DNA of 64,000 nucleotides from Parcubacteria group bacterium (GTDB lineage Bacteria > Patescibacteriota > Minisyncoccia > Phycocordibacterales > UBA2135). The stretch covers positions 48,824 to 112,823 of the forward strand of contig JACPBB010000002.1 in NCBI GenBank assembly GCA_016180525.1. Reading direction: 5' to 3'. This document shows positions 5,184 to 62,517 of the stretch, piece after piece. The translations under genes and the position numbers were made by a program. Every line of letters begins with the position of its first letter. The first letter of the stretch is position 1. Under the pieces are notes generated by a model, which saw only the letters and a program-made list of their open reading frames with translations, made no database searches and was not told the origin of the DNA.

Positions 5184-5192
5184 CATACCCCA

Positions 5193-5225: not shown

Positions 5226-5267
5226 TACACTCTAACATAGAGTATCCTTGAAAGACGGAGAATATAG

Positions 5268-8105: not shown

Positions 8106-8112
8106 ATACGCA

Positions 8113-8150
8113 AAACCGCTCTGGTATACATCAGAGCGGTTTTTTCTTTT
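8113..8150. terminator. rho-independent terminator after spoVR
   Basis: AAACCGCTCTG...CAGAGCGGTTT hairpin followed by a T-run. Confidence 0.6.
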
Positions 8151-8155
8151 GGTGC

Positions 8156-8215
8156 GCAGGAGAGGAATTTCACTACTCGTCGCTCCGCCAGTTGGCGGAG
8201 CTCCTGCGCTTTCAA
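8156..8215 (-). other. tRNA-Leu-derived pseudo-tRNA remnant
   Basis: On the minus strand it reads GCGCAGG...ATTCCTCTCCTGCGCACCA. It shares the 5' acceptor strand and the last about 18 nt (T-stem plus acceptor plus CCA) with the bona fide tRNA-Leu 190 bp away. The internal region is replaced by a single hairpin. Confidence 0.45.
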
Positions 8216-8308
8216 ACCACTCGGTTTGAAGAATCCTCCACGGGAAAACTACAGTTTTCCCGGCCCCTTTCGTGTTCAAATCCTCACCGTGCTCAAAAAC
8301 ATCACAAC

Positions 8309-8343
8309 AAAAAAACCGTACTGTTTGTGAGTACGGTTTTTTT
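8309..8343. terminator. hairpin + T-run immediately downstream of tRNA-Leu
   Basis: CCGTAC...GTACGG stem flanked by an A-run and a T-run. Confidence 0.45.
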
Positions 8344-8347
8344 GTTT

Positions 8348-8434: not shown

Positions 8435-8484
8435 AAAAATCAGTATTTAGTATAGAGTATTTAGTATGAAGTTTCAAGAAAACT

Positions 8485-10446: not shown

Positions 10447-10484
10447 ATACTTAGGGGTTAGTAGTTAGCGTTTAGGATTTAGTA

Positions 10485-10766
10485 TTAATAGAGGATTTTA
10501 AAGCCTTGAAACTTCTCTACCGGCTCATGCCACTCTACTTTAACATTCGCGACTCGTGCAAGAAACGGACCTTTGTGAAGATATTCTAAAAGCTTTTCCA
10601 AACTCTCTTCGGTTCCTTGCGCAAAAACTAAAACTGAGCCGTCTTCCTGGTTTTCAACGGTCCCTGAAATGTTAAGTCCGCGCGCTTTGCGCTGAACAAA
10701 ATCCCTGTACATAACAAGCTGGACCTTCCCGCTTATTTTACATCGTATTTCTTTTATCATAATCAA
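10485..10766 (-). CDS. acyP: acylphosphatase
   Basis: VQLVMYRDFVQRKARGLNISGTVENQEDGSV resembles the acylphosphatase signature. Confidence 0.85.
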   Translation of the reverse strand: MIMIKEIRCKISGKVQLVMYRDFVQRKARGLNISGTVENQEDGSVLVFAQGTEESLEKLLEYLHKGPFLARVANVKVEWHEPVEKFQGFKILY

Positions 10767-10892: not shown

Positions 10893-11044
10893 ATTTGAGT
10901 GTGGAGACAAAACTGAGTCCCGACGTTTTTGTCGGGACCCCGACCGCTTTGCGCGTCGGGGCTAAGCGTCCCCCACATTTGTCCATACTATACTTAACTA
11001 TACTAAAAATACAAATAAAAAAGGCGGGCGCAATGCGCCCGACC

Positions 11045-11570
11045 CGAGTTTGAACAATCTGTTTTTCATTATTCTCGCCTGAGCTGCCCAATAAGCAGTC
11101 GGCGGGTTTTTTCTTCCCAGGGTCCGTCTTTGTTAGGCTTACTGGTAGCCAACCTTGGCTTCGAGATAAGCCTTCAGGGTACGATATACGCACCCTCGTG
11201 AGTCCATCCACATCGAAACCTCCTGTGAAAAGTGGTGGAAAGAACGCACATGAGGCCTCGCCGCTATTTATAATGTAAAAACATATGTGTTAAGGGAGGC
11301 CTCATGCGCATTCTCTCGCCTCTATGAACCATATTCTAATTCTTAACTCCTATTATACACAAATATAAAATTTTGTCAAGTTTTCACTAAGGAGGTAGTT
11401 TTTAATCCTCTTGGGATAAAAATAAAGTCATCCCGATTTGTATTGAGACTCGTTTGTTTTTTACGCAGGATACTTGAATTAGGGCGAACCCACCGCGCCT
11501 TCGGCGCGGCAGAACCCCCGCCAAAAATGCAGGCGGCGAAGCCGCACCGCTGACAATTTCAAGTTTTTTT
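11045..11570 (+). ncRNA. rnpB: candidate RNase P RNA (rnpB), bacterial type with insertions; boundaries approximate
   Basis: In the correct order, between tRNA-Val and a GC-rich islet:
- P4 5' strand-like AGTCGGCGGG (about 11098).
- CR-II/III-like CTGTGAAAAGTGGTGGAAAGAACGCAC (about 11224-11249).
- A long P12-like hairpin CATGAGGCCTC...GAGGCCTCATG.
- A UUCG-capped hairpin immediately before GGCAGAACCCCCGCC, the P4 3' strand (about 11507).
- Possible P2 pairing CGCCTG/CAGGCG and terminal T8.
No ORF of 60 aa or more lies in 11212-11618. rnpA is present elsewhere in the window. Confidence 0.45.
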
Positions 11571-11736
11571 TGACGGCGAATAAATCCAAGAATTCGCGAA
11601 GCGAATACCTTGAATGAACTAAATATAGAAAATTATGACAATAATTTCAATTTTAGAAAAAGTGAGAGCCCCGAGCAGATTTTTGGTCCGCGAGGGGCTC
11701 GGGTTGAGGGCGATGTTTGTGCGTGCCAGGCCACGA

Positions 11737-16930: not shown

Positions 16931-17398
16931 ATGGAAGAAGAACAAAAAAATATCACCTGGAAAACACTTGAACATAAACATGCCCACAAAGACCCTGACT
17001 GGTTTTGGGGTATTGGCATTATTGCCACATCAATCGCGATTATATCCATCATTGGCGGAAATCCGCTGTTTGCCGTTTTAATCGTTATTGGAGCAGTTAC
17101 ACTTTTCCTGCACGCAATAAAAATACCCCAGAATATAGAGGTGCGTGTCAGCGCGGATGGTATTTTAATTCACAATGCTCTTTTCTCATATGAACAGCTT
17201 GAGTCATTTAATGTTGAAAATAACGAGCACGACTCCTTTATTATTTTAAAATCAAAAAGAATTTTAACCCCACGAATTATTGTTCCGCTCAAGGCGGGAC
17301 TGGAAAAAGACGCACGGGGTGTGCTTCTCAAGTATCTCAAAGAAGAAAAACTTGAAGTTCCGATATCGCATCGCCTTCTTGAATTTTTAGGATTATAA
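16931..17398 (+). CDS. hypothetical membrane protein (155 aa)
   Basis: Two N-terminal TM helices. A terminator follows at 17404-17439. Confidence 0.55.
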   Translation: MEEEQKNITWKTLEHKHAHKDPDWFWGIGIIATSIAIISIIGGNPLFAVLIVIGAVTLFLHAIKIPQNIEVRVSADGILIHNALFSYEQLESFNVENNEHDSFIILKSKRILTPRIIVPLKAGLEKDARGVLLKYLKEEKLEVPISHRLLEFLGL

Positions 17399-17403
17399 AG
17401 AAA

Positions 17404-17439
17404 ATCGCCCCGATTAATATCGGGGCGATTTTCTTTTTT
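17404..17439 (+). terminator. rho-independent terminator
   Basis: ATCGCCCCGATTAATATCGGGGCGAT hairpin followed by TTTCTTTTTT. Confidence 0.6.
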
Positions 17440-18235: not shown

Positions 18236-19006
18236 TTATTTGCCGGCGGTTAAATTAATATTAAATCGTATGGCTTCTTTCATTTCATAAACCCCTTGTC
18301 CCGCAACGTTTGGATCGTTTCCGGGGTATGCCCTATGCCAATCTGATTCTGTAAGAGTTTCCGCCCAAAAAAGCGCCTTTTGAAAGTAAATCTTGGCTTT
18401 TTCATTATTGCCTAGGTTCATATGCGCAAGCGCTGTCATATTTAAAAGCCACGGGTTATTCGGAAAATGCGCGAGTCCGCCCTCCGCAGTTTGCCGTGTT
18501 TTTTCATAGTTCCCCTGTTGAAAATAAATCCACGCCAGGTCGTTGTACACAGCCCAGTTATTTCTATCCCATTCAAAAAATTTCAAAAAATTTTTCTCCG
18601 CTTTTTCATATTCTTTCGTATATCCATAAATGAGCCCGCGGATATAATATGAAGACATAAGCGAGTCGCCATGCAGCTCAATTTGTGTATTTATCTTCTC
18701 GAGTGCCCCATCAAAATCCCCGCGCAAAAAATCAATCCGCGCAAGCTGGTGCCACGCATCAGACACGTTCGGATCGACTCCGAGCGCTTTATTAAAATAT
18801 TCTGCCGCCCTGTCTAAGTCATACTTCCCGCTTCCGCCAACATTGAAATAATAATTTCCCTTTTGCACGAATACGTTCGCGTCATTCCCCCGCAAAGAAA
18901 ACATATCAAAAACAACTGCTCCCGTTTTTGTTCGTGTCAACACAAGTACTACAAGCACAAAGATTACGAAAATAAAGATAAGTTTTTTATTCAGCGAGAT
19001 TTGCAT
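18236..19006 (-). CDS. TPR repeat-containing membrane-anchored protein
   Basis: N-terminal TM segment plus multiple TPR-like repeats (AEYFNKAL, WHQLARIDF, etc.). Confidence 0.7.
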   Translation of the reverse strand: MQISLNKKLIFIFVIFVLVVLVLTRTKTGAVVFDMFSLRGNDANVFVQKGNYYFNVGGSGKYDLDRAAEYFNKALGVDPNVSDAWHQLARIDFLRGDFDGALEKINTQIELHGDSLMSSYYIRGLIYGYTKEYEKAEKNFLKFFEWDRNNWAVYNDLAWIYFQQGNYEKTRQTAEGGLAHFPNNPWLLNMTALAHMNLGNNEKAKIYFQKALFWAETLTESDWHRAYPGNDPNVAGQGVYEMKEAIRFNINLTAGK

Positions 19007-24175: not shown

Positions 24176-25666
24176 ATGAAAGAGTTTGATGTGGAAGTTA
24201 CCACAAACGTTGTGGAATATTTAAAACAAAGACATTTTCGTCCATATAAGCGAAGCATTTTAAAGTTATGCCTAAAAATGCTTGAAAAATACACGGGAGA
24301 GAATATTACTATACCCGTCTCTCGAGAGCTTCAATTACTTGGAGGAACATCGGTTTATCTTTGGAATTCAATAGAGACGCTCTACGCACTGCAGTCTTTG
24401 GGTATCGTTTCGCATTTCTCAAAAAATATGCACTACCCAGACGAGCCGCGTCTTCACGGATATAGCGCGGCATATTCAACCTCAGCAAATCGTTCACTAA
24501 GTAGAGCAAGCGGGGTTGATTTCTTTGACAAAAAAAAGGCTTTCTTCCGAATGCTTGGCGAATCAGTTGAGCGGCATTTGTGGTCTTGCACAGATTTTTT
24601 TTCAAGAAATCAAATAATGAAACCTTATAAAGAAATTAAAAATAAATCATTGAATATATTTTTACTTGCCGGATTCACGAAAGAACAAAAAAAACAATAT
24701 AGAGAGCTCCAGCTTACCGAAAATACACCACTTGCGTGGATTCCCGCCACATCACTTGTAAGTGAAAAGAAAATATGGTGTCCAACACAACTATTGAGCG
24801 TCCGTTATTTTAGAGAAAATGTGAGAACGCCAAAGAGACCCGCGAAACCAGAGCCAATGCTGCGGTGGTGTGTTACCACAGGTCTTGCAACGGGAAAAAC
24901 ACTAGAGGAAGCAATCGTTGCTGGGATATTGGAGGTAATAGAAAGAGACGCATTTATGATTACCTTTTTAAATAAACTCTCTCCTCCACTCATAGATTTG
25001 GAATATGTCGCAAGCCAAGACAAAGACATAGATACTATTTTGAAAAAATTTAAACGATACAATCTTGAAGTATATATGATCGCGCTTCCCACTGATTTTC
25101 CTGTACACGTTGTGTTGAGCCTCGTTATTGACCCATCGGGACGAGGCCCGGCTACAAGTGTGGGAGCAAGTGCTGATTTTGATTTAAAAAGATGCATCCT
25201 TGACGCATTATCTGAATCTCTCTCAGTAAGATACAATATAAAAAATAAATACAAGGATCCGATTGATTTGCAACATATTGGAAGAGAAGAGAGAATATTA
25301 TATTGGGCAAAAGAAGAAAACGTGCCTGGTCTTGAATTTTTAACAAAAGGGAAAAAAAATAAAGTTGAGTTAAATAAACAACATGTTTCGCAAAACTCAG
25401 AGATTCGTCATGACAAAAAACAACTTGATACACTTAGAGTAGAATTTAAAAAACAAAATCAAGAAGTATGTTTTGTAGAGCTTTCCTCAAAAGAAACCAG
25501 AAAACTTGGCTTTAGAACGGTTTTTGTGGTTGCTCCGGAAATGCAGCCAATGCACCTTGATGAATCAATCCCCTATTTTGGTGGCAAGCGCCTCAAGGAA
25601 GTACCTGAGAAACTGGGATACAAACCAGCGAAAGAATTAAATAAGGAGCCACATCCCTTTCCTTAA
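24176..25666 (+). CDS. YcaO domain cyclodehydratase (TOMM D-protein-like) with about 100-aa N-terminal extension and C-terminal PxPxP
   Basis: FFRMLGESVERH and GLATGKTLEEAIVAGILEVIERDAF YcaO signatures. The C-terminus ends EPHPFP (PxPxP motif). Confidence 0.85.
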   Translation: MKEFDVEVTTNVVEYLKQRHFRPYKRSILKLCLKMLEKYTGENITIPVSRELQLLGGTSVYLWNSIETLYALQSLGIVSHFSKNMHYPDEPRLHGYSAAYSTSANRSLSRASGVDFFDKKKAFFRMLGESVERHLWSCTDFFSRNQIMKPYKEIKNKSLNIFLLAGFTKEQKKQYRELQLTENTPLAWIPATSLVSEKKIWCPTQLLSVRYFRENVRTPKRPAKPEPMLRWCVTTGLATGKTLEEAIVAGILEVIERDAFMITFLNKLSPPLIDLEYVASQDKDIDTILKKFKRYNLEVYMIALPTDFPVHVVLSLVIDPSGRGPATSVGASADFDLKRCILDALSESLSVRYNIKNKYKDPIDLQHIGREERILYWAKEENVPGLEFLTKGKKNKVELNKQHVSQNSEIRHDKKQLDTLRVEFKKQNQEVCFVELSSKETRKLGFRTVFVVAPEMQPMHLDESIPYFGGKRLKEVPEKLGYKPAKELNKEPHPFP

Positions 25667-25668
25667 TC

Positions 25669-26415
25669 ATGCTTTCTAAATTATTTCACAAAAAAATCAC
25701 AAATGAACGACCATATACACCAAGAGACCCAAAAGATTGGCCGATTTCATGGCGTACCGTGTATTTTAAAGAATACCCAAGATTTGATAGAGTAATGCTG
25801 CCAATAAATTTTTTAGAGCTGAAAAATTTAAAAGATGTTTTAGAAAAAAGACATTCTACCAGAACGTTTGACATAAAAAAAGAAATAACTCTACAGGAAC
25901 TCTCAACAATGCTTTATTATTCAGCCGGCATAAAAGGGACGCCTGGCAAATATAGAGACAAGCCGCAAATGGAAAAAAATAAATCAAGGCGATTCTATCC
26001 GTCCGGCGGAGAGCGATATCCGCTTGAAGTGTACGTCGCAATAAAGCGAATTTCCGAGATAAACTCTGGAATATACCACTATAACTTGCCCAATCACTCT
26101 CTTGAACAATTGTCAGATAAAGAATGTTTAAGCGAGTTTTATGAAGCACTTGGCGAACCATGGGCAAAAGACGCTGCGGTAGTTTTTATTATAACTGCTG
26201 TCTGGGATAGAAATTTTATAAAATATCAAGACTTCGGTTACAACATAATTCTTACCGAGACGGGACATATGGCTCAAAATCTAATTTTACTTTCAGAGTC
26301 TTTGGATCTACACTATTGTCCGTTTATTGGATTTGATAATAAAAAAATAAATAAAATTTTAGACATTGATGAGGAAAATGAGTCTTCTTTATATATGATT
26401 GCAGGAGGAAAATAG
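25669..26415 (+). CDS. SagB-type dehydrogenase (nitroreductase superfamily, TOMM B-protein-like)
   Basis: RHSTRTF and PSGGERYPLEVY motifs. Its start lies 3 nt after the ycaO stop. Confidence 0.8.
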   Translation: MLSKLFHKKITNERPYTPRDPKDWPISWRTVYFKEYPRFDRVMLPINFLELKNLKDVLEKRHSTRTFDIKKEITLQELSTMLYYSAGIKGTPGKYRDKPQMEKNKSRRFYPSGGERYPLEVYVAIKRISEINSGIYHYNLPNHSLEQLSDKECLSEFYEALGEPWAKDAAVVFIITAVWDRNFIKYQDFGYNIILTETGHMAQNLILLSESLDLHYCPFIGFDNKKINKILDIDEENESSLYMIAGGK

Positions 26416-26457
26416 TATTATTGATTCTTTAGAGAAATTTTATGTGCTATTAATTGT

Positions 26458-27483
26458 ATGTTTTTTATAAAAAACCTTTCACAAAACAACACAGAGCATG
26501 AAACCGTATTACAGGATCAGCTCTTGGCAACGCACTACTTAATTACTCTCACACACACAACACTTGAGCGTCTGGGCCTTTTTGATGTCTTGAGAAAAAA
26601 AACAGAGCCAGCAGCAATTGATGAGCTATCAAAAATAATAAAAGTAAGAACTGACATTTTAGAGGCTTGTATTAATTTCTTGTGGTCTACGACCAATTAT
26701 CTAGAAAAAAACGGGCAAAAAATTATTTTGAAAAATAATCCGCCAAAATGGTTTTGGATAGCAACGTATAAACCTGTATTTGACAACTTAGAAAGTTTAT
26801 TAAAAGGAACAAAAAAATATGGAAATGATGTTGTTCGTGATGGATATTATTTACAAAAAATGTCTATTACAATCAATAATCCGGTTGAAAATTATATAGT
26901 CCAACAGCTTCAAGAAATTAAAGAAAAAAGTATCCTTGTCGATTTGGGCTGCGGCCCAGGGACACTTCTTTCACGGGTAAGCGCTGCAAATCCATTAATA
27001 GAGGGGCTTGGCATAGATGTTGACCCAATCATAACCGACATTGCTCAAAAAAACGTAATGCGTTCGCGTCGTCCAATAAAAATTATCACGGCAGACGTGA
27101 CAAAAATACATTTCTGGAAAAAACACATTCCATCAAATGTAAATCTTATATTCTCAGCAAATTCCATACTCCATGAACTCTTACGAGACGGAGAAGAAAG
27201 GTTCATCTCTTTTTTAAAAACACTCAAGGGCGCGTTTCCGGGCTCTCGATTTTTTGTAACAGAAATTAACGCGCTTTCGCCTCAAGAAATAAAAAATATG
27301 CGGAGCAACGATTACAAATTTTTTATGGCAATGTTTATGTTCACCCATCCGCTTACTGAACAGGGATTGCCACGATCCAAAAAAGAATGGCTTTCTTTTT
27401 TTAAAAAAAGCCAGTGGTCCGTCATGCGAACAGAACAACCTAAAAATAATGACGCGCGAATTATCTATGACTGTCTCTTATGA
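26458..27483 (+). CDS. class I SAM-dependent methyltransferase (O-MT-like with N-terminal dimerisation region)
   Basis: ILVDLGCGPGTLLS motif I. Confidence 0.75.
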   Translation: MFFIKNLSQNNTEHETVLQDQLLATHYLITLTHTTLERLGLFDVLRKKTEPAAIDELSKIIKVRTDILEACINFLWSTTNYLEKNGQKIILKNNPPKWFWIATYKPVFDNLESLLKGTKKYGNDVVRDGYYLQKMSITINNPVENYIVQQLQEIKEKSILVDLGCGPGTLLSRVSAANPLIEGLGIDVDPIITDIAQKNVMRSRRPIKIITADVTKIHFWKKHIPSNVNLIFSANSILHELLRDGEERFISFLKTLKGAFPGSRFFVTEINALSPQEIKNMRSNDYKFFMAMFMFTHPLTEQGLPRSKKEWLSFFKKSQWSVMRTEQPKNNDARIIYDCLL

Positions 27484-36834: not shown

Positions 36835-37716
36835 ATGGACATGCTCAAATGGATAATTTTTATACTTGTTATTCTTTGGATCGTTTGGTTTTTAACCGGC
36901 GGTCCAAAAAGCGGATTTGTCAGTCAGCCGTTTTTACGCCCTCCCGCCCCTCTTGATACCGGGGAGCTTTATGGAGAACCGCTTTCAATTCCAGGCTTTG
37001 AAAGCAGAAGTGAAACGGGGTCTGCACAAGAAGAGAGCGCGCCTACATCAATATTCAGCGGAAGTATACAGCTTGCGGTTGGCAACCCCTACACTCAAAG
37101 TCCGCAGGAAGAATATGTTGAGATACGAGCCTCTTACAGCAACACGCAACCAATTAACATAACTGGCTGGGAAATAAAAAGCGCGATAAGCGGACTTGGC
37201 GCAAAGATCGGACAGGGAGTATACCTGCCGGCGTCTGGATTAGTAAACAGAGAAGAGCAAATTTTTCTAAATCCAGGTGACCACGCCGTTATAAACACGG
37301 GGCGATCCCCAAACGGCGTTTCGTTTCGGCTTAACAGTTGCACCGGGTACTTTGAACAATTCCAAGATTTTGCTCCGCAGCTTCCCTCGCAATGTCCGCT
37401 TATTGAAACTAAAGATCTGCCCGCAGTTGGAGCAGGAGGATTAAATGATGCCTGTATAAATTATATAGAACGTCTTCCGCAGTGTTTTGCTCACGTGCTT
37501 GCGGTCCCCACAGAGCTTTCTTCGGCATGCGGTGAATATATAAATAAAAATATCCATTACAGCGGATGTGTAGCCGCGCATAAAAATGATTCGGATTTTT
37601 ACAAGTCAGAATGGAGAATATTTCTAAATCAAAATACCGAATTGTGGCGCCAAACTAGAGAAACAATAAAGTTGTTTGATGCGCAGGGAAAAGTCATAGA
37701 CTCGCTTTCCTATTAG
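36835..37716 (+). CDS. hypothetical membrane-anchored Cys-containing protein
   Basis: N-terminal TM segment. No recognised domain. Confidence 0.5.
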   Translation: MDMLKWIIFILVILWIVWFLTGGPKSGFVSQPFLRPPAPLDTGELYGEPLSIPGFESRSETGSAQEESAPTSIFSGSIQLAVGNPYTQSPQEEYVEIRASYSNTQPINITGWEIKSAISGLGAKIGQGVYLPASGLVNREEQIFLNPGDHAVINTGRSPNGVSFRLNSCTGYFEQFQDFAPQLPSQCPLIETKDLPAVGAGGLNDACINYIERLPQCFAHVLAVPTELSSACGEYINKNIHYSGCVAAHKNDSDFYKSEWRIFLNQNTELWRQTRETIKLFDAQGKVIDSLSY

Positions 37717-37723
37717 GAATTAG

Positions 37724-37782
37724 GCACTAGGCGTTAGAATTTAAATTTTCTAGAGCCTAACGCCTAATACCTAGAGCCTTTT
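37724..37782. repeat. TTAGGCG-heptamer palindromic intergenic element (convergent-gene terminator)
   Basis: aggcactaggcgttagaa...ttctagagcctaacgcctaatacctagagcc. The same element family occurs at 59355-59415, 61395-61440 and 62425-62520. Confidence 0.5.
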
Positions 37783-38964: not shown

Positions 38965-39317
38965 GCCACGTTGACATTGACGCGTGTATTGCATTTTCTA
39001 AAGAGGGAGTCACGCGTTGTGAGAAAATGATAATGGAGATGTTTGGAGATGGCGGCTGTTGCATTGCCCAGTCATTTGCTTTGGCAAAACAGAGACACTT
39101 ACTCAATATTGAATTGTTGGAAGAACTGAAACAAAAATACGAAAATTTAAATGATCTTCAAAAACAAGCCCTCATACAATCTTTTCTTGCAAAAATAATT
39201 ACTGAATTTCATACTGATGTGCTAAAGAGAAAAATAGAGATTCTTGAGAGAACAATAATCAGACTGCTTCCTGAAGCTGCCCAAAAATTTGTTCACACAA
39301 CTCCAAAAGCCGCATAA
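38961..39317 (+). CDS. hypothetical protein (118 aa)
   Basis: Coupled to the upstream ORF. A terminator hairpin follows. Confidence 0.5.
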   Translation: MSHVDIDACIAFSKEGVTRCEKMIMEMFGDGGCCIAQSFALAKQRHLLNIELLEELKQKYENLNDLQKQALIQSFLAKIITEFHTDVLKRKIEILERTIIRLLPEAAQKFVHTTPKAA

Positions 39318-39371
39318 AGCGGCTTTTTCTTGTTTTGAGTTTGAAATTTTAAACTTTTATGATATAAAAAT

Positions 39372-44029: not shown

Positions 44030-44223
44030 TTTTTTGGCCCTCCTTAGGCCGATGTTGAATGGAACCACTTCTAAGCTAATGTAATTATATCATACTTTGA
44101 TATATAAAGTCAAGCCCCCAAACAGTTAAAATACCCTTATTTTACAATCATAAAAATTCAGTTCCAAGGCCTGGCCTTGGAACGGTAAAAATAAAAAGAG
44201 GCGGCATCGTGAGATGCCGCCGG

Positions 44224-44388
44224 CTAGAGATAGAATTCCGGTACTTTTTTTGAGAGGCGCCTACGATTGTGTTTCTCCATCCACTCTCCAGCACTGTCTA
44301 TGAGCCGAAGAGCGGAGATAAGCGTCGCGGCGATTGCGACGATTGCCCACTCTGCAAATTTTCGGGCATTGTCATCTTTCATGTTCAT
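44224..44388 (-). CDS. small single-TM protein (54 aa) in GC-rich islet
   Basis: GGGAGG RBS lies 6 nt upstream of ATG AAC ATG. TM segment WAIVAIAATLISAL. Perfect 9-bp hairpin plus T-run lies downstream. Not in the supplied ORF track (<60 aa). Confidence 0.4.
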   Translation of the reverse strand: MNMKDDNARKFAEWAIVAIAATLISALRLIDSAGEWMEKHNRRRLSKKVPEFYL

Positions 44389-44508
44389 GATCTGCCTCCC
44401 TTAAAATGTTAAATCTGATTGCTTTTTATTATATCAATAAAATATATTTATGTCAAGTGTCTAAAATAATATAAAAGCGCCCCTAACTTGAGGGGCGCGA
44501 TTGCGAAA

Positions 44509-49698: not shown

Positions 49699-49791
49699 AT
49701 GGACGACGAACTTAATGTTTTAGACGAAGAAGAAGCAGAAGACGACGCTCCGATTATGGATGATATGAGCGAAGAAGACGAAGAAGAATAA
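49699..49791 (+). CDS. putative 30-aa highly acidic peptide (MDDELNVLDEEEAEDDAPIMDDMSEEDEEE)
   Basis: ATG directly follows a TATTATAAT -10-like box. A terminator hairpin lies 10 nt after the stop. Not in the ORF track (<60 aa). Confidence 0.3.
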   Translation: MDDELNVLDEEEAEDDAPIMDDMSEEDEEE

Positions 49792-49798
49792 CAAACTA

Positions 49799-49830
49799 AA
49801 AATCATCCCGATTCCTCGGGATGATTTTTA
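49799..49830. terminator. bidirectional terminator (tyrS / acidic peptide)
   Basis: ATCATCCCG...CGGGATGAT stem followed by TTTTT. Confidence 0.6.
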
Positions 49831-49835
49831 GTTTG

Positions 49836-51077
49836 TTATTTTACTTTTATTTTTAAAAATTTTTTCTTTCCTATTTTTAAATTTATATCTGCGTTGATAC
49901 GATAACTGATACTGTCCAACTTAACGCCAGTTTCTGTATTCATAATCGCTCGCCCTTCAATAAGTCTTCTAAATTCAGACTTGGAAGAAACGATGTTTTT
50001 TGCCAATAAAATATTTTCAAGAGTGGCATCCCTAGCAACAGAAATCTCAGTGGCGTCGCTGGGAAATTCTTTTCTCTGAAATGTGCTGACAAAATGTTTT
50101 TCCGCTTCCTCCGCTTTTTTTGCTCCATGATATAGGGCAACAATTTCCTTCGCTAGCTTCATTTTAATGTCTCGAGGATTAATACCCGCCCTCAGTTCTT
50201 TTTTAATGTGCTCTATTTCAGAAAGAGACACGAGGGTGCAATCAATAAACACTTGAATAATGGTGCTGTCTGGAAGCGCCATAACTTTTCCATACATGTG
50301 AGCCGGAGTATCGCAGAGCGCCACATAGCCTCCCTCACTTTTACTCATAAGTTTTCTGCCAGTTTTTGGATTCTCAAGAAGAGTCGTCGCTATAATAAAT
50401 TTTTCTTTATTGTTATATTTCCTCTGAAGTATTCTGCCGGCAAGCATATTAAAAATCTGGTCAGAGCCTCCAATTTCAATGTCTACATCCATCGCAGTGC
50501 TGTCATACCCCTGCATCAACGGATAAAAAAATTCATGCATATATATCGGCCTCCCCTCTTTCATTCGTTTTTCAAACATATCTCGTTCAATCATGTGCTG
50601 CACCGTAAATGAGGACGCTAGTTTCAAAATCTGCTCAAATCTTAATTTCTTAAGCCACACGCTGTTTTGTAATATCTTTGCCGGATTTTTTTTGTCAGTA
50701 AACGAGAGAATGGGAGCAATTTGTTTTTTCCATGTTTTTAAATTCTTTTTTATCTCCTTCAGAGAGAGCGCAATACGCGCGGAATCTTTCCCCGATGGGT
50801 CTCCTATCATCGCGGTAAAATCGCCAAACAAGACAATTACCTCGTGCCCCAGTTTTCGCAATTTTTCAAGCAATATAAAATTTGTTGAATGCCCTAAATG
50901 TAATTCAGGCCCCGTCGCATCAGCCCCAATATAAATACGCAAACGCCTGCCAGAAAGTAGTTCTTTTTTAAGCACTTCCCGCGAAGGAAGAATTTGAAAA
51001 ACACTCCGCGAAAGGAGTTCGTCTATTGCTTTTTCCTCAGTAACAATAAAATTTTTTTTCTTTGCGGAGCGTATCAT
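49836..51077 (-). CDS. tyrS: tyrosyl-tRNA synthetase
   Basis: HIGH-type LHLGH motif and a KMSKS-type KLMSKSEGG motif. C-terminal S4-like domain. Confidence 0.85.
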   Translation of the reverse strand: MIRSAKKKNFIVTEEKAIDELLSRSVFQILPSREVLKKELLSGRRLRIYIGADATGPELHLGHSTNFILLEKLRKLGHEVIVLFGDFTAMIGDPSGKDSARIALSLKEIKKNLKTWKKQIAPILSFTDKKNPAKILQNSVWLKKLRFEQILKLASSFTVQHMIERDMFEKRMKEGRPIYMHEFFYPLMQGYDSTAMDVDIEIGGSDQIFNMLAGRILQRKYNNKEKFIIATTLLENPKTGRKLMSKSEGGYVALCDTPAHMYGKVMALPDSTIIQVFIDCTLVSLSEIEHIKKELRAGINPRDIKMKLAKEIVALYHGAKKAEEAEKHFVSTFQRKEFPSDATEISVARDATLENILLAKNIVSSKSEFRRLIEGRAIMNTETGVKLDSISYRINADINLKIGKKKFLKIKVK

Positions 51078-53969: not shown

Positions 53970-54038
53970 ATGTTAAGTATTTCGTATCTCGTATTTAGTA
54001 TTAATAAAATTAAATAACTGTATACCAGATACTAAATA

Positions 54039-55136
54039 CTACTTATTGAGCGGCATCACGAGGTACATGAATGATTTGTCCCCCACTCCTCGTATGACAA
54101 GCGGGCGAGCTTCGCCGCTAAATTGAAAGACAACGCTGTCTTTTGGTATTGAAGCAAAACATTCAATCAAATATCTCTGATTAAAACTCAAAGAAAGTTT
54201 TTCTCCGGAAAGAGCTCCTTCTATATTCGCCACATGCTCTCCAACATCCGCATTTTGGGAATGAACTGTAAACTCTTTTCCTTTAGGATCAACTGAGAAA
54301 TCAACCTGATTTAATTTATCTGAAAATATATTGGATATTTTTAGGGCATTTATCATATCTTCTTTTAGTATCGTTGCTTCTGATTTAAATTCTTTGGGAA
54401 TAATCTGTTGATAATCCGGAAAGACGCCGTCAATAATGCGGGAAGTTATATACATATTTTCAGTCACAAAAGAAATTTGATTTTTATCAAAATGAACTTC
54501 AACATCTCCAGAAACTTCGTCAAGTATTCGTATTATTTCCAATATATTTTTTAACGGGATAAGCACCGGAGAAAATTGTTCTCCATGGGAAACAGATAAT
54601 TTTTTTTCAGCAAGACGAAACGAGTCGGTCGCGACTAGCGTAACTGTGTCAGAGTCTCCAAAAATATAAACGCTTGATATTTCAGGTTTTATATCGGATA
54701 GTGAGGCACTGTGAGAAACTGATTTAAGTCCCGAAACAAATTTATGCGAATCAATAATAAAAGGATTTTTATTTTTTATATGGGGTAATGTCGGAAAATC
54801 TTCATATGGGTAACTTTTAATAACCGTTGATATATTTTTTGTTGAAACTGAAAGATTATTATTTTTAAGCTTCAATGAAACCGTCTTGTCATGCATATTT
54901 GATAGCAGATTATTAAGTACTCCACCGGGAATTGCGGTTACCCCTTCTTCTTCTACTTTTGCAGGAACTATAATTTCAACTCCTAAATCAAGATTCGTTG
55001 CCCGTATACGCACCATTTGTCCTTTAGCGACAAAAAGTAAAGAACTCAAAATAGGCAATGTAAGATTTTTACCGGTTACTTTTTCTGCAATACTGACAGC
55101 ATTTTTTATTTTTTCTTTTACACATTCTATTCTCAT
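54039..55136 (-). CDS. dnaN: DNA polymerase III subunit beta (sliding clamp)
   Basis: Three-domain clamp length. Position next to dnaA. Confidence 0.9.
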   Translation of the reverse strand: MRIECVKEKIKNAVSIAEKVTGKNLTLPILSSLLFVAKGQMVRIRATNLDLGVEIIVPAKVEEEGVTAIPGGVLNNLLSNMHDKTVSLKLKNNNLSVSTKNISTVIKSYPYEDFPTLPHIKNKNPFIIDSHKFVSGLKSVSHSASLSDIKPEISSVYIFGDSDTVTLVATDSFRLAEKKLSVSHGEQFSPVLIPLKNILEIIRILDEVSGDVEVHFDKNQISFVTENMYITSRIIDGVFPDYQQIIPKEFKSEATILKEDMINALKISNIFSDKLNQVDFSVDPKGKEFTVHSQNADVGEHVANIEGALSGEKLSLSFNQRYLIECFASIPKDSVVFQFSGEARPLVIRGVGDKSFMYLVMPLNK

Positions 55137-55440
55137 AAATAATCTATTTTAAAAAACTATACACCACTGTTTATAAAATATAATGTTTTGATTATAAATA
55201 TATAATGATGATTATAGTGTTGTTGATATGTTTATAAAACTTATATTGTCTTTAAATTCAAAGGTTTATTTGAAACTATAATTTTTAACATCGTGTTGAA
55301 AATTAAAATGAAATGTTTACATTTTTTTTATATCGGTAATTACAGAAATTATATCCATATCATGCACATGTTTTAATTCGATATTTCCACTCACTGTTCA
55401 CATTTTTATATAAGATGTAAACAGTGTTATAAACAATTCT
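55137..55440. promoter_or_regulatory. AT-rich dnaA-dnaN intergenic region with DnaA-box-like motifs (candidate oriC part)
   Basis: About 300 bp of very AT-rich DNA between dnaN and dnaA, with TGTTATAAACA/CTATACACC-like boxes. Confidence 0.35.
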
Positions 55441-56796
55441 TTAAAACATTGAACGAATTCTTTCAACCTCCTGAACGAGCATATTGTTTTCTTTTAGGTT
55501 GTTTCTGATTTTTTCACACGAATGTATAACGGTTGTGTGATCTCTTCCTCCCATTTTTTGTCCAATAGTTGGATAAGAAATATTAAAATCTTCCCGCAAA
55601 ATATACATAATTATCTGGCGAGGCTTAACAATTTCTTTACGCCTGGTTTTCTTATAAATATGATCTCGTTCTACATTGTAAAAATCAGAGACCACACGCA
55701 CCACATCATCAACGGAAAGCATTTTTTTAGGGCGTTCATTGTGTTTTATAAGAGACTTAATTTCTTGAATGGATAATTCTCTGTTTTTTAATTGAACTTG
55801 GCAGATAATCATATTTAATATTCCTTCTAATTCTCTGATACTGCTTTGCGTGGCAGAAGAAACATACTCAATAATTTCATCCGGCAATTCAAAATTTGCC
55901 TGCTTTGATTTTGATTTGAGGATAACCACTTTTGACTCAAAATCAGGCTCCATAATATCAACGATCATTCCCTGCCCAAGTCTAGATTTAAGGCGCTCCT
56001 CAAGTTCTGCGTAGTTGTAGTGTCTATCAGCGGAAAATATCATTTGTTTATTGTTGTTGTACAACGTATTAAACAAATGGAAAAATTCATCCTGTGTTCC
56101 GCCTTTTCCTTCAAAATAATGTATATCGTCCATTATGAGCACGTCATATTTACGGTATTTTTCCTTAAAAATACTTATTTTATTCATTTGCACTGAGTTT
56201 ATATAGTCAAGATAAAACTTTTCGGCAGTGAGATAATACACCTTTTTATTTTCATGAGCCTGTTTTATGCCATTCCCGACAGCTTGCATAAGATGTGTTT
56301 TACCAAGGCCAGTTTTCCCATAAATAAATAAGGGATTATAGGCATCGCCTGGCTTTTTCATGACCGATTGAGCAGCTGCATAGGCAATCTCGTTAAAGGG
56401 GCCTACCACAAAAGACTCAAAACCATATCGAGGGTTTAAATTATCTTCTTTATTTATATAAAGGTCTTTAAGAGGCAGTTCTCCGGCATAGGCTGGAGCT
56501 TTTTCCTCTAATTGTACGGCCTCTTTTACCTCTCGTGGCTCATTTTTTGTGATGATATACTCAATACTCCGCACGCCCTCGTTTAAATTCCGCAGAGAGC
56601 GCAGTATAGACTTATGATACTTATTGGAAAGCCACTCTCGCGCGAATCCATTGGGAACACCCAAAAAAATGATTCCATTTTCCTGCTTTACAATATAGGT
56701 GTTTTTAAACCATGTACTAAAATTTGCTTTGGAAACGCCTATCTCGAGGTCGCTGAGTACATTTTCCCAAAGTTGTTTGTTGTCCATAGTGAGCAC
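55441..56796 (-). CDS. dnaA: chromosomal replication initiator protein DnaA
   Basis: Walker A GKTGLGKTHL. AAA+ motifs. C-terminal DNA-binding domain (GGRDHTTV). Confidence 0.9.
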   Translation of the reverse strand: MLTMDNKQLWENVLSDLEIGVSKANFSTWFKNTYIVKQENGIIFLGVPNGFAREWLSNKYHKSILRSLRNLNEGVRSIEYIITKNEPREVKEAVQLEEKAPAYAGELPLKDLYINKEDNLNPRYGFESFVVGPFNEIAYAAAQSVMKKPGDAYNPLFIYGKTGLGKTHLMQAVGNGIKQAHENKKVYYLTAEKFYLDYINSVQMNKISIFKEKYRKYDVLIMDDIHYFEGKGGTQDEFFHLFNTLYNNNKQMIFSADRHYNYAELEERLKSRLGQGMIVDIMEPDFESKVVILKSKSKQANFELPDEIIEYVSSATQSSIRELEGILNMIICQVQLKNRELSIQEIKSLIKHNERPKKMLSVDDVVRVVSDFYNVERDHIYKKTRRKEIVKPRQIIMYILREDFNISYPTIGQKMGGRDHTTVIHSCEKIRNNLKENNMLVQEVERIRSMF

Positions 56797-57080
56797 GTTT
56801 TAAAGAGATTCTTATTTATTATTTATTAATTATATATGACTTGAAATTACTGCAAACTTGTTAAATTGGTTGCAGTGTGTTGATAATATGTGGAAAATGG
56901 TGATAAAAAAATTTGACTTTTAAATTTTTTGATAGAAATTAAAACAGGGCGTATTTTATAAATAAATCAAAAAAATTTTGATGCATTGATGCGCTCGTAT
57001 ATTAAATTTTTTTAATGCGAACCTTGTCCAAGGCGGGCGGGGGTTTACTAACATCACCTTTTGGTATACACTACCTGTTA

Positions 57081-57218
57081 ATGTCTAAAACATATCAACC
57101 CAAGAGGAAAAAAAGAAAAACAACGCATGGTTTTCTTGTTCGAAGAAAAACTGCCGGCGGAAGAAATATATTGAAGCGAAGAATGAGAAAAGGAAGGAGA
57201 CGTCTAACTGTTAAGTGA
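57081..57218 (+). CDS. rpmH: 50S ribosomal protein L34
   Basis: [29 protein letters not shown] matches L34. Confidence 0.8.
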
Positions 57219-57320
57219 ATATAACACGAAATGTTCGAAAAACATTCGAAATCTATGAAAATATAATGTTTTTAATTTCATAATTTCGCATATGATTTTT
57301 TAGTTCCGCATTATTGTTTT

Positions 57321-57671
57321 GTGCTAAAAAAAAATCAAAAAATAAAACGGAAAGAATTTCTTGACGTTATGGCGCGAGGAAAAATATTTCACTCCCAGCA
57401 CCTCTCTTTGAGGGTTTCTAAAAAAGAAACTCAAAAAAATAATTCTCCCAAAATTTCTTTTGTTGTATCCGCCAAAGTCGCGCGAAAAGCAGTCGATAGA
57501 AATAAATTAAAACGAAGAGGATATATCATTGTTCGCGCGTTGCTCAAAAACATAAAGCAAAATTATTTTTTTGCTTTTTTCTTTAAAAAAGATTCTACTA
57601 CGCTTTTATTTGAAGAAATAAAAAAAGAAATTATTTTTTTATTAAGGCGTGCGGATGTTTTGTATGACTAA
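57321..57671 (+). CDS. rnpA: ribonuclease P protein component
   Basis: Basic protein directly downstream of rpmH. RnpA-like KLKRR motif. Confidence 0.8.
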   Translation: MLKKNQKIKRKEFLDVMARGKIFHSQHLSLRVSKKETQKNNSPKISFVVSAKVARKAVDRNKLKRRGYIIVRALLKNIKQNYFFAFFFKKDSTTLLFEEIKKEIIFLLRRADVLYD

Positions 57672-57888
57672 AAAAATTGCAACATTTTTAATAACTTTTT
57701 ATCAAAAATTTTTTTCTCCCGACACAGGAATTACTGGAAGGAGAAATATTTGCGTTCTTTACCCAACTTGTTCTGAATATGCCAAAATCGCCATTGAAAA
57801 ATATGGGTTTATTAAGGGCGTAGTAAAATCAGTAGCACGCATTTTTCGGTGTCATCCGTGGCAGAAAAATCATATAGATGTACCGTAA
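57649..57888 (+). CDS. yidD: membrane protein insertion efficiency factor YidD
   Basis: YQKFFSP...CxxxPTCSEYA...GxxxRxxRCHPW motif. Confidence 0.8.
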   Translation: MRMFCMTKKIATFLITFYQKFFSPDTGITGRRNICVLYPTCSEYAKIAIEKYGFIKGVVKSVARIFRCHPWQKNHIDVP

Positions 57889-58011
57889 AACATATAACGT
57901 AAAACGCAAAATGTGGATTATAAAACCTGAAGTATAAATTGCAAAAATTCTTGAGTTATACGCCTTACGTTATGTGTTGCGCGTATTGTGTAAATCCCGT
58001 ACAATACGAGG

Positions 58012-58776
58012 ATGATTGCCGATATTTTTAATACGATTCTCTATGAACCCCTCTTAAACGGGTTGATTTTTTTAGTGGGCGTTATTCCTTATGGAGATGT
58101 CGGATTTGCCGTCATAATTCTTACGCTTTTGGTAAAAATTATTCTCTTCCCCCTTTCTCATAAATCAGTTAAAACACAGCGGAAAATGAAAGAGGTTGAG
58201 CCTGAAATTAAAAAAATAAAAGAAAAATATAGCAAAGACAAACAAGAACAGGCAAAAAAGGTAATGGAACTATACAAACAGCACAGCCTTAATCCTTTTT
58301 CTGGATGTTTATTTTTTGCCATACAGATGCCTATCATTATTGCTCTCTATTGGGTTTTCTGGAAAGGACTTACAAACGGCATCAACGCGGATCTTTTGTA
58401 TTCATTCATAACAGTTCCTGAATCAGTGCACTTTAACTTCTTGGGGTTTATCGATATGACCGGGCGTAGTTACTTTTTGGCGGCGTTTGCGGGCATCTCT
58501 CAATATATTCAACTCCAACTCTCTCTTCCTGCAACTCCGGTGTCATCGCTTAAGGCGGGGGGCTCGTTTAAAGATGAATTTGCAAGAAATTTTACGTTTC
58601 AGATGAGGTACGTGTTTCCTGTCTTTGTGTTTATAATTTCATATACGATTTCTTCCGCAGTTGCCTTATATTGGGCAGTATCAAACATCTTCATGATAGG
58701 GCATGAGCTTTTGGTGCGGCGGAAAGCAAGGGCTATCGCCAGCAATCCGGATACTCCGAATAAAATATCCGAATAA
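58012..58776 (+). CDS. yidC: membrane protein insertase YidC (short form)
   Basis: Five-TM core with conserved YidC helices. Operon position. Confidence 0.85.
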   Translation: MIADIFNTILYEPLLNGLIFLVGVIPYGDVGFAVIILTLLVKIILFPLSHKSVKTQRKMKEVEPEIKKIKEKYSKDKQEQAKKVMELYKQHSLNPFSGCLFFAIQMPIIIALYWVFWKGLTNGINADLLYSFITVPESVHFNFLGFIDMTGRSYFLAAFAGISQYIQLQLSLPATPVSSLKAGGSFKDEFARNFTFQMRYVFPVFVFIISYTISSAVALYWAVSNIFMIGHELLVRRKARAIASNPDTPNKISE

Positions 58777-58866
58777 CTCGAATAGAGTTGCTACCGCTTG
58801 ATTTTATCTCTCAATCAGGTATATTCGGAGTATTCGGATACTCATTCATATATTCTGATTATTATC

Positions 58867-59358
58867 ATGGAAACCGCATTTATACAAAAAACAATAGAAG
58901 ACATATTGAGGTGCCTTTCTGTTGACGCCACGTTTTCGGGCATTGTTGAAATAAACAACGGAGATATTATAAAATTTTCAATTAAAACAAAAGAGCCCTA
59001 TATTTTGATAGGAGATGAGGGTAAAGTACTCATGGCTTTTAATCATTTGATTAAAAAGATTTTTGAGACTCAGTCCGTGAAACAAAATTTTAAACCACTT
59101 AATTTTATTGTGGATATTAATGATTATCAGGAGCAGAAAATTGAAGATATAAAAAATAAAGCTCGCATGATGGCGGAGCGAGCGCGCTTTTTTAAAAACA
59201 ATGTTGAGCTACCTGCCATGAATCCGTATGAACGAATGATTGTGCATTCGTTTTTCACGAATACGCCCGATATAGAAACTGAATCAACCGGCACAGGCCT
59301 CGAGCGCCGCGTCGTGATTAAATATGTAGGAACAACAGAAGAGGCTCTAGGAAACTAG
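58867..59358 (+). CDS. Jag/KhpB-like RNA-binding protein (KH/R3H domain)
   Basis: C-terminal R3H-like MIVHSFF...GTGLERRVVIKYV. Position after yidC. Confidence 0.7.
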   Translation: METAFIQKTIEDILRCLSVDATFSGIVEINNGDIIKFSIKTKEPYILIGDEGKVLMAFNHLIKKIFETQSVKQNFKPLNFIVDINDYQEQKIEDIKNKARMMAERARFFKNNVELPAMNPYERMIVHSFFTNTPDIETESTGTGLERRVVIKYVGTTEEALGN

Positions 59359-59410
59359 GCTTTAGGCGTTAGGAAAAATTAAAAAACCCTAAAGCCTAGA
59401 GCCTGACGCC
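59359..59410. repeat. TTAGGCG-type palindromic intergenic element
   Basis: ctaggctttaggcgttagg...cctaaagcctagagcctgacgcctaaggcctaa. Lies between convergent genes. Confidence 0.5.
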
Positions 59411-60645
59411 TAAGGCCTAATTTTCAGGCTCCACAACGAGGAGTCTTTTTTGTTTCTGAAGATAAGGAGTGTTTCATCTAGAGAAAGCTCCGGATCAATG
59501 AGGTCAATCTCTGTTCGGGCGTCGTCTTCCGGAATCGCGAGAATGTTTAATGCGCCCGTTTCCGTATTTATTTTCCATATTGTGTCGGAGAAGGAAACTT
59601 TTCCTTGGTACCAAAAGTCAGGGTAGTCTCCTGTTTCAACTGAACGCGGCGCTCCACAGAAAAGCGTTACGTCATCCTTACTCCACGCACACTTTTCAGG
59701 AAGAGTTGTAATGGGGAATGCGGTTATCCCCCGCGTTCCTGTTCTGTGGAGAAATGTTTCAAAAGAATCGCTCGCACTTGCCGAAAAAATGACTTTGCTT
59801 TTATCATGTGAAACAAGTGCGGTTAACCCGGGGACATCTCCGAGCAGTTTACTCAAAACCCCAGTTTTACTATTAAGAGTGTACAAAAAACCTCTTACTA
59901 ACGCGGATGGCTTTGGAAGAAGAGTAATGGTGTTTGTGTCTACCCACTTCGGGATCCAGCCAACTATTGCAGATTCAAAAATTTGCTTTTTACTGCTCCC
60001 ATCAATTTTTGATATTGTTCCTATTGCTGCGTTTCCAAGAGAGAGAATATAAAACAAGTCTTGTCCGCTCGGAGAGATGGAGAGATTGTGAATATTGTCT
60101 GGAAGAAATGTTCCATTTAATGCTCCGTTGCTTCCCGTTGTTGTTGAAATTGCGATATTCGCCGCAACTGTTTTTATCGCGTTATTGTTTTCAAGATATT
60201 GAAATATGAGGTTTTCTCCACTTGCCCCCCACAGTATTTTTTGGATTCCCGGGACGGTTGTATTTGAAATCCTTTCCGCGCGCGCTCCACCCGACCCTAT
60301 TTCATAAACATGCCCTGTTTGTTTTTCTATATATCGTATAAAAGTTTTACCGTCTTTTTCAAAGACGACTGCCCCCGCGACGGGGCGAGAAGATATTTGC
60401 CGAAGACCACCCTTAAGGGGTTCTGCCGCTTCTTGTTTTTCTCCATCTCTGCTTATAGATGGTATTGTGGGGGCACCACCGGTGTCCCGAGAAGACCCTC
60501 CTCCAAAAGGAGAGATTTTGCTCGTTGTTAAGGGTTCTACACCTGGAATCTTGCCTTGCTGTATTAAAATAAATCCTCCCACAAAGAGCGCAATACCGAG
60601 CACGGCGAGAATCCCTATTGTTATGTAAATTGTTTTTTGGTGCAT
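59410..60645 (-). CDS. membrane-anchored hypothetical protein (beta-rich, possibly propeller)
   Basis: N-terminal TM segment. No confident family. Confidence 0.5.
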   Translation of the reverse strand: MHQKTIYITIGILAVLGIALFVGGFILIQQGKIPGVEPLTTSKISPFGGGSSRDTGGAPTIPSISRDGEKQEAAEPLKGGLRQISSRPVAGAVVFEKDGKTFIRYIEKQTGHVYEIGSGGARAERISNTTVPGIQKILWGASGENLIFQYLENNNAIKTVAANIAISTTTGSNGALNGTFLPDNIHNLSISPSGQDLFYILSLGNAAIGTISKIDGSSKKQIFESAIVGWIPKWVDTNTITLLPKPSALVRGFLYTLNSKTGVLSKLLGDVPGLTALVSHDKSKVIFSASASDSFETFLHRTGTRGITAFPITTLPEKCAWSKDDVTLFCGAPRSVETGDYPDFWYQGKVSFSDTIWKINTETGALNILAIPEDDARTEIDLIDPELSLDETLLIFRNKKDSSLWSLKIRP

Positions 60646-61392: not shown

Positions 61393-61436
61393 ATAATTTT
61401 TTTCTAAATCCTAATACCCAATATCTAGAGCCTAAT

Positions 61437-62423: not shown

Positions 62424-62424
62424 G

Positions 62425-62517
62425 ATTTAGGCGCTAGGCCTTAGGCGTTAGGCGTTAGGCGTTAGGATTTAATTTATTTTTCTAGAGCCTAACGCCTAAT
62501 GCCTAAAGCCTTATTAA
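62425..62517. repeat. (TTAGGCG)n / (CGCCTAA)n inverted tandem-heptamer palindromic element
   Basis: ttaggcgctaggccttaggcgttaggcgttaggcgttagg...ctagagcctaacgcctaatgcctaaagcc. Confidence 0.55.

Follow-up and report, generated by a model that had tools for sequence, protein, structure and literature searches.

The question raised by this locus is what kind of element fills the whole of a gap between two genes of one operon with a single large inverted repeat. The window analysed here, a 64,000-nucleotide stretch of a Parcubacteria genome taken as a whole, includes, besides housekeeping genes, a T4SS-like operon and the surroundings of the dnaA/dnaN origin. Within it, the type hairpin at 62424-62517 (delimited by period-7 array calls, folding and ORF context, and assigned to neither strand) constitutes the entire spacer from the stop of a VirB4-like gene (62518) to the start codon of a 328-aa gene (62423), both on the - strand. 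The original prediction had taken it for the type member of a genome-specific, REP/BIME-like family of palindromes that lie mostly between convergent genes and can serve there as bidirectional terminators. Our analysis leads to a different assignment: the elements are intergenic tandem heptanucleotide repeats of the STRR/LSSR class, many of them paired as inverted-arm stem-loops, and they are not genome-specific, not REP/BIME elements by definition and not the terminator type of this genome.

The architecture of the type locus agrees with the original description of TTAGGCG units facing their reverse complement across an AT-rich spacer, with six units set against four. The 5' arm (62427-62468) consists of six TTAGGCG-like units, which read on the + strand TTAGGCG (62427-62433), CTAGGCC, three further TTAGGCG (62441-62461) and TTAGGAT. 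It is followed by a 13-nt AT-rich spacer (62469-62481) and by a 3' arm of four CTAANGC units (62482-62509; CTAGAGC, CTAACGC, CTAATGC and CTAAAGC), the end of the array lying 3 nt from the ATG of the 328-aa gene. Tandem Repeats Finder reports 62427-62466 as a period-7 repeat of 5.7 copies (score 66) and the right arm as a second period-7 array. The units are imperfect, with at most three consecutive identical ones. The predicted RNA fold is very stable in both senses, at -44.8 kcal/mol for the - strand, which is the mRNA sense, and -49.9 kcal/mol for the + strand (z-scores of -6.7 and -7.3, respectively). The nematode telomere unit is the hexamer TTAGGC, and the match of the heptamer to that unit, proposed earlier as a coincidence, therefore amounts to a partial resemblance between repeats of different period.

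The signal that distinguishes these elements is their 7-nt phasing and not the word TTAGGCG itself. Exact TTAGGCG occurs nine times in the window against 8.35 expected from shuffles, so that word enrichment was rejected as a signal and phase-aware tests were used instead. Runs of at least three TAG at exact 7-nt spacing were observed eight times, compared to 0.21 in dinucleotide shuffles (shuffle maximum, 3), and TAG at this strict spacing is the most conserved feature of the window arrays. A strict periodicity threshold (18 of 21 matches) returned the type locus only and was relaxed, with other periods serving as controls; under the relaxed setting, 13 imperfect tandem arrays were found at period 7, compared to 0-3 at each of periods 4-6 and 8-12 and about 0.4 in shuffles. 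Of these 13 arrays, 11 fall within non-coding DNA, which makes up 11.4% of the window (p = 2.6e-9). Motif types differ between arrays (TTAGGCG, AGTATTT/TTTAGTA and CGTAAAA), and what they have in common is the 7-nt period and, in most, a TTAG/CTAG core. The same period dominates the other genomes that were fetched, with 240 arrays at period 7 and at most 24 at any other period, and in those genomes the arrays remote from the site that triggered retrieval have highly diverse motifs.

Several hairpin copies are dispersed through the intergenic regions of the window, as had been predicted for a family of palindromes; the inverted elements, like the type locus, are assigned to neither strand. Two of the predicted copies (37724-37782 and 59359-59410) are real hairpins with somewhat different boundaries. 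The one at 37713-37779 is located between the convergent genes of an LTD-domain protein (+) and a SpoU methylase (-), is 83% identical to the type locus over 81 nt and folds with a dG of about -29 (z -5.6 and -6.0); the TAG of its first heptamer unit is the stop codon of the + strand LTD-domain gene. The one at 59355-59423, between the convergent jag/R3H gene (+) and a 411-aa gene (-), is 80% identical to the type locus over 79 nt and folds with a dG of -32.5 and -28.6 (z -5.4 and -3.6). Here the stop codons of both flanking genes are TAGs of heptamer units, bringing to three the stop codons that these two elements provide. The alignment of the copies covers part of the spacer and flank, and it is therefore whole elements, not units alone, that appear to have been copied.

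Further inverted elements are built from other heptamers. A hairpin of AGTATTT/TCGTATC-type units at 53970-54038 (dG -18.6, z -3.8 and -4.6) separates two - strand reading frames, reaching from the dnaN stop (54039) to the start (53969) of an 86-aa ORF, and inverted CGTAAAA-type arrays at 57882-57990, whose fold is comparatively weak (z -2.5), run from the yidD stop to the yidC start on the + strand. In the origin neighbourhood (54039-59358), dnaN (54039-55136, -) and dnaA (55441-56796, -) are followed by rnpA, yidD, yidC and jag/R3H on the + strand; the gaps near dnaA at 55137-55440 and 56797-57014 are very AT-rich (GC about 0.32-0.34), and the gene order of this region also occurs in the relative L130. 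Between the divergent rpsT (ATG at 34446, -) and ruvA (+) genes, identified by their S20 and RuvA Pfam matches, a degenerate inverted array at 34447-34520 with units GTTAAGG GTTTAGG GTCTAGC GTTTAGT ... CGCTAAACGCT folds weakly (z -2.0 and -2.8).

The remaining arrays have a single arm. That at 61393-61436 (-), which reads TTAGATTAGGCTCTAGATATTGGGTATTAGGATTTAG on the - strand, is the whole 44-nt spacer between two - strand genes and abuts the start codon at 61392; it is degenerate and yields no hairpin by folding (z -1.0), and the related palindromic copy predicted at 61395-61436 was thus not found. Five TTAGNNN units at 10451-10486 (+) begin 4 nt from the start codon of uppS (10446, -), again with no hairpin by folding (z -0.1). 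The similarity of composition that had been pointed out at 10447-10484 and 34455-34530 corresponds to this array and the one at 34447-34520, both of which have period 7 and a TTAG core. An AGTATTT/TTTAGTA array at 8438-8478 (+) is flanked by the rplS terminator and by the 5' end of tRNA-Leu (-), and a short array at 2832-2859 (-), reading CTAAAAA CTAAACA CTAACCG on the + strand, lies between tRNA-His (-) and a + strand gene. Altogether, the 64-kb window holds about five hairpins and about five single arrays. Elements are 52-94 nt long with arms of three to six tandem heptamers, stems of 18-30 bp with bulges and loops of 8-28 nt, and folds are stable at five loci.

Placement relative to genes departs from what had been predicted. 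Only two of the ten intergenic arrays (37713 and 59355) are located between convergent genes, whereas five (62424, 61393, 53970, 57882 and 10451), including the type locus and 61393 between same-strand (-) genes, are at same-strand junctions, and the other three, including the divergent 34447, are between divergent genes or adjacent to tRNA genes. Array flanks are about half gene starts and half gene ends, so there is no enrichment at gene 3' ends, the test that had been proposed for the family. At four starts (62423, 10446, 34446 and 53969) the gap between array end and start codon is 1-4 nt, and no SD-like motif was found at these starts or at 61392. However, an SD-like 4-mer occurs at -16 to -6 in only 4 of the 67 ORFs of the window, so that SD-less starts beside arrays reflect the genome at large and are nothing peculiar to the arrays; SD displacement was accordingly dropped as a distinguishing feature. 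Many ATGs of the window stand about 8-12 nt after a TATAAT-like box (e.g., 18236-19006, 33331-33747 and 24176-25666), which, together with the few SD sites, suggests mostly leaderless or SD-independent initiation.

A terminator scan of the window calls none of the heptamer hairpins, and, as a group, they do not have the short GC-rich stem, 3-8 nt loop and immediate U-tract of intrinsic terminators. A T-tract in the transcribed direction is absent at 62424 (-), 53970 (-) and 34447. The U-tract 3' of the 59355 element is weak and confined to the + strand, and a canonical T-tract terminator (59426-59446) comes immediately after it. The + side of 37713-37779 is directly followed by the T-tract CTTTTTAAATATTT, and no other copy is followed by a clear one. 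Bidirectional termination would thus fit two of about ten loci at most. Ordinary T-tract terminators are present elsewhere (e.g., 8112-8143, 17397-17436, 34136-34175, 39305-39327 and 59426-59446), and the heptamer hairpins are a class distinct from them. The genome's real bidirectional terminators are the long perfect palindromes at 49785-49842 and 34136-34175, between convergent genes, which have stems of 27 and 18 bp, respectively, and A/T tracts on both sides. A promoter reading was rejected as well, with no sigma-70-like promoter predicted inside the three TTAGGCG hairpins (62424-62517, 37713-37779 and 59355-59423).

Likeness to REP/BIME elements holds in part: the elements are intergenic, form hairpins and are probably transcribed, but they have neither a tag nor a unit of 20-40 bp, and the window encodes no transposase for them. 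No GTAG or CGTC tag flanks any copy, the only similar sequence being the TTAG/CTAG internal to the units, and no transposase or RAYT gene, the associated tyrosine transposase that had been proposed as a check, was found among the approximately 60 window ORFs of at least 100 aa. As for MITE features, inverted arms are present, and the copy alignment has no clear target-site duplication or sharp ends. A phase-variable contingency locus was considered and judged unlikely, given imperfect units with no more than three identical in succession and five independent assemblies (Logan contigs of up to 4.7 kb) that are 100% identical to the window, with no copy-number variation. Short-read contigs of the host genome (L001-L005) end exactly at heptamer elements (window 59426 and 61409), and long perfect TTAGGCG arrays stand at contig ends in L011, L041, L055, L084 and L108; these ends are consistent with repeat-induced assembly breaks.

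Rfam gave no match on any of the elements, either at gathering thresholds or at E <= 0.05. The same was true, even at E <= 0.05, of five long, GC-rich and apparently structured non-coding gaps (1517-1875, 8106-8347, 10894-11634, 33970-34174 and 44048-44508), which may represent divergent CPR non-coding RNAs or the remains of genes. Two other features of the window deserve mention. A low-GC island at 24176-32596 (34-37% vs. about 41-44% elsewhere) encodes YcaO, nitroreductase, methyltransferase, DegT-type aminotransferase, a 1082-aa PQQ beta-propeller/AMMECR1 protein and Asp/Arg beta-hydroxylase, and looks like a RiPP-type modification cluster, possibly horizontally acquired and unusual for a Parcubacterium. 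In the PrkA/DUF444/SpoVR operon (3135-8105), the DUF444 (YeaH-like) gene is split into overlapping ORFs (5268-5804 and 5770-6597) that match the Pfam model over its N- and C-terminal half, respectively, which could be due to a frameshift, a pseudogene or a sequencing error.

Related Parcubacteria were reached through orthologues of the 328-aa protein (51-58% protein identity), which gave three syntenic loci. In L133, three consecutive junctions of the same T4SS-like operon each have a TAGGC-type hairpin; the three are nearly identical and keep a conserved AT spacer of about 50 nt, and a GAATTAG-type hairpin lies upstream of the 328-aa-protein orthologue. At the orthologous junction between VirB4 and the next gene, two AGTATTT-type hairpins are present in L131, which also contains heptamer hairpins with further motifs, and L130 has no hairpin at that junction. 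Three of four related genomes have heptamer hairpins at the same operon junctions, and the comparison of L133, L131 and L130 indicates that positions recur while the heptamer turns over.

The elements are not restricted to this lineage, contrary to the idea of a genome-specific family. A 19-mer comprising 2.7 TTAGGCG units has at least 120 matches in GTDB species genomes against about 4 expected by chance (a rough estimate from collection size); those listed include Thermomicrobiales, Acidobacteriota, Bacteroidota, Planctomycetota, Gammaproteobacteria and others, and many of the listed matches share the arm-spacer-arm layout. L039 and L095, from unrelated genomes, contain nearly identical complete hairpins (79-83% over 70-76 nt relative to the type locus). 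In viral contigs, TTAGGCG forms 13 arrays, compared to 6 and 8 for two composition-matched heptamers and a chance expectation of about 0.5 (again roughly estimated from collection size), while TAACTGA forms at least 120. Since the control heptamers are about as frequent, TTAGGCG is probably one of many array-forming heptamers; its standing as a special cross-phylum word was rejected as unsupported, TAACTGA being the one that is clearly special. Several IMG/VR contigs, L262/L263 and L272/L278 among them, contain dozens of CAGTRAT...ATYACTG (TAACTGA-family) hairpins each, all in one arm order. When metagenomes were scanned with the 19-mer common to the two best copies of the window, 10 unrelated loci (GC 0.37-0.60) were recovered, with no additional copies from the host lineage among them; three of the 10 (L285, L286 and L288) represent orthologous leaders, between which the number of 7-nt units varies. 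In Pirellulales/Planctomycetota (L042, L046, L107 and L124), TTAGGCG arrays are repeatedly interrupted by a second small element, GAGCGGGGGGCGTTAGCCCCCTGTTTG, about 30 nt long, which is similar to very small dispersed repeats reported from heptamer arrays of cyanobacteria.

The inverted heptamer arrays have a nearly constant arm polarity, 5'-(G-rich arm)-loop-(C-rich arm)-3', and, the element being a palindrome, either strand shows this order. Among the TTAGGCG loci listed, 52 have the G-rich arm first and 9 the opposite order. Across all motifs and sources after de-duplication, the G-rich arm comes first in 76 hairpins and second in 10 (p about 1e-13; 51 vs. 5 at the locus level). Hairpins of TTAGGCG and of unrelated motifs share this polarity, be they from Parcubacteria, viral contigs or genomes of many phyla. 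The T-tract terminators of the window lean the opposite way, with a C-rich 5' arm in 15 vs. 8, and for single arrays the gene-relative bias is weak (45 vs. 28, p = 0.06). Heptamer hairpins of other taxa keep the polarity but not the UAG. On a bolder and rather doubtful view, heptamer-array hairpins might form a distinct functional class of cross-phylum intercistronic RNA elements whose polarity is fixed by a co-transcriptional requirement. The order of arms could keep C-rich RNA, on which Rho can load, from ever being exposed, or it could allow a factor to engage the 5' arm prior to stem closure, and in SD-poor genomes the hairpins may set processed mRNA ends beside start codons. If this were true, the puzzle of 7-nt dominance in prokaryotic intergenic DNA would become directly testable.

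The explanation that we prefer overall, at roughly even odds (a probability of about 0.5), is that these STRR/LSSR heptamer arrays originated by slippage and copying and, with less certainty, that they function as transcribed intercistronic stem-loops. Arrays would arise and change through 7-nt slippage, and whole elements would occasionally be copied into other spacers; motif turnover would be quick, with occupied positions recurring among related genomes. The elements lie inside operons, abutting stops and starts, and so would be transcribed in polycistronic mRNAs, where their most likely role would be that of RNA stem-loops punctuating the message. Such a stem-loop could protect the 3' end of the upstream cistron. 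The elements could also be processing sites, since a stem of 18-30 bp is the kind of substrate that RNase III cuts, and cleavage at the stem would give the downstream cistron a very short leader, one that would suit a genome with scarce Shine-Dalgarno use. That the arrays fill operon junctions completely and contribute stop codons makes it unlikely that they are inert at these sites. Some observations run against an RNA role: the type locus has a more stable fold in the non-transcribed (+) sense (-49.9) than in that of the mRNA (-44.8), and G-U-compatible mismatches in its arms, read by eye, do not favor the transcribed strand. Moreover, since the single-arm arrays (10451, 61393 and 8438) cannot act as hairpins, no single RNA-structure function can account for every member of the family.

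The main rival to transcribed stem-loops is a neutral or selfish by-product, which is less likely but has a real claim to consideration. Slippage would favor 7-nt units, template switching would create and homogenise the inverted arms, and arrays without any function would persist only where, and in which orientation, they are harmless. Polymerase slippage has been suggested for heptameric repeats (Mrazek 2007, as quoted in PMC4692102), composition-matched heptamers form arrays in viral contigs about as often as TTAGGCG does, and the motifs of arrays elsewhere in other genomes are very diverse. The rapid motif turnover between relatives and the absence of the element from L130 are also expected of a neutral repeat. 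What speaks against a neutral origin is the recurrence of hairpins at shared operon junctions in three of the four related genomes, the precise packing of arrays against start and stop codons in a compact genome (89% coding) and the 76 vs. 10 polarity, which needs selection or a directional mechanism. A REP- or MITE-like mobile element, the inverted arms of which would be terminal repeats for a transposase (RAYT or other) encoded elsewhere, ranks lower and is improbable. It would account for the whole-element similarity that includes the spacer (83% over 81 nt between the type locus and 37713), for the three near-identical L133 copies with their conserved spacer of about 50 nt and for a fixed arm polarity, which would be inherited, and assemblies do break at arrays. 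Yet a mobile family sits poorly with the absence of transposase or RAYT genes among the approximately 60 ORFs in 64 kb, of tags, of clear target-site duplications and of defined ends; the metagenome scan gave 10 unrelated loci and no copy burst, and single-arm arrays and many motifs do not suit one transposon family.

Bidirectional intrinsic termination, the function originally proposed, is very unlikely. The hairpins are very stable, two of them are located between convergent genes and one has CTTTTTAAATATTT on its + side, but five loci are within operons or directly before start codons, loops reach 28 nt, no hairpin is called by the terminator scan, T-tracts are absent at 62424, 53970 and 34447, the 59355 element is directly followed by a canonical terminator, and the T-tract terminators of this genome tend to the reverse order of arms. 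Least probable of all, and highly so, is that the elements are binding arrays for a single-strand RNA-binding protein controlling hairpin formation or translation. The HutP antiterminator site is UAG-N4-UAG-N4-UAG, and TAG at strict 7-nt spacing gives a UAG-N4 pattern in the 5' arm; the G-rich, UAG-bearing arm would moreover come first in every transcript, as a factor that acts before pairing would require. To our knowledge, HutP is known from Bacillota only, however, and no HutP-family protein was found among window ORFs of at least 100 aa. Cold-shock proteins bind about 7 nt each (PMC4679880). Even so, the hairpins of other taxa keep the polarity and not the UAG, and no candidate protein was found.

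Several known systems resemble the transcribed stem-loops that we favor. The early mRNA of phage T7 contains intercistronic RNase III hairpins, and similar stem-loops serve in processing within operons; the window elements share with them a long intercistronic stem and a downstream start near its 3' base, a likeness that is a functional analogy only, with no sequence relationship. With REP elements, BIMEs and REPINs (PMC3733652; PMC3116915), they have in common that they are intergenic, palindromic, often at same-strand or convergent junctions and probably transcribed, and REP-type elements have been proposed as mRNA stabilisers. REP units are, however, defined by a length of 20-40 bp and a GTAG or CGTC tag, the GTAG type being tied to the RAYT transposase (PMC3733652), whereas the window elements are tagless stretches of 52-94 nt made of tandem heptamers, with no RAYT in the window. 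For annotation, the message is that the elements are neither REP elements nor the terminators of this genome.

Closer parallels are found among heptamer repeats. The GGGAATC/GGGGAYT repeats of Xanthomonas and Nostoc (Rehm 2015, PMC4692102) are likewise intergenic, near ORF ends and in some cases paired as inverted stem-loops, and they have a gene-relative polarity in common with the present arrays, with the G-rich strand coding after stops and non-coding before starts. They were studied as G-quadruplex formers (PMC4692102), whereas TTAGGCG has GG runs only and no G4 is possible. In marine Beggiatoaceae, Cyanobacteria and Bacteroidetes, direct repeats of TAACTGA stop about 1 nt short of SD-less starts (MacGregor 2015, PMC4679880). 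Both sets of arrays lie a few nt from SD-less starts, including those of ribosomal protein genes, and are patchy across phyla, and the start-proximal arm here, (C)TAACGC, is similar to TAAC-TGA. The heptamers differ (TTAGGCG, AGTATTT and CGTAAAA types in the window), and inverted pairing is common in the window compared to one inverted TAACTGA set among 170 in BOGUAY (PMC4679880).

The best match is to the cyanobacterial STRRs and the LSSRs of Mrazek (2007), with which the elements share imperfect 7-nt tandem units, an intergenic location and several motif families per genome. Unit numbers that vary in 7-nt steps, a further trait of the class, are seen in unrelated genomes at the orthologous leaders of L285, L286 and L288. 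At least three head-to-tail 7-nt copies, an excess of period 7 and intergenic placement were all found. Tandem heptamers are reported as the most abundant intergenic periodic repeat in prokaryotes, with no clear clue to their function (Mori et al., 10.1101/309039), and heptameric repeats are over-represented in many bacteria (Mrazek 2007, quoted in PMC4692102). A full-text literature search for the TTAGGCG tandem motif returned no description and matched only primers. The present elements differ from STRRs and LSSRs in their CPR/Parcubacteria host and in their short arrays of three to six units, which often form inverted arms that occupy whole spacers. Although the instance itself is ordinary for the class, our results extend the class to an SD-poor and highly compact CPR genome; they also show that the same operon junctions carry different heptamers in related genomes and that a strong arm polarity persists across motifs and phyla.
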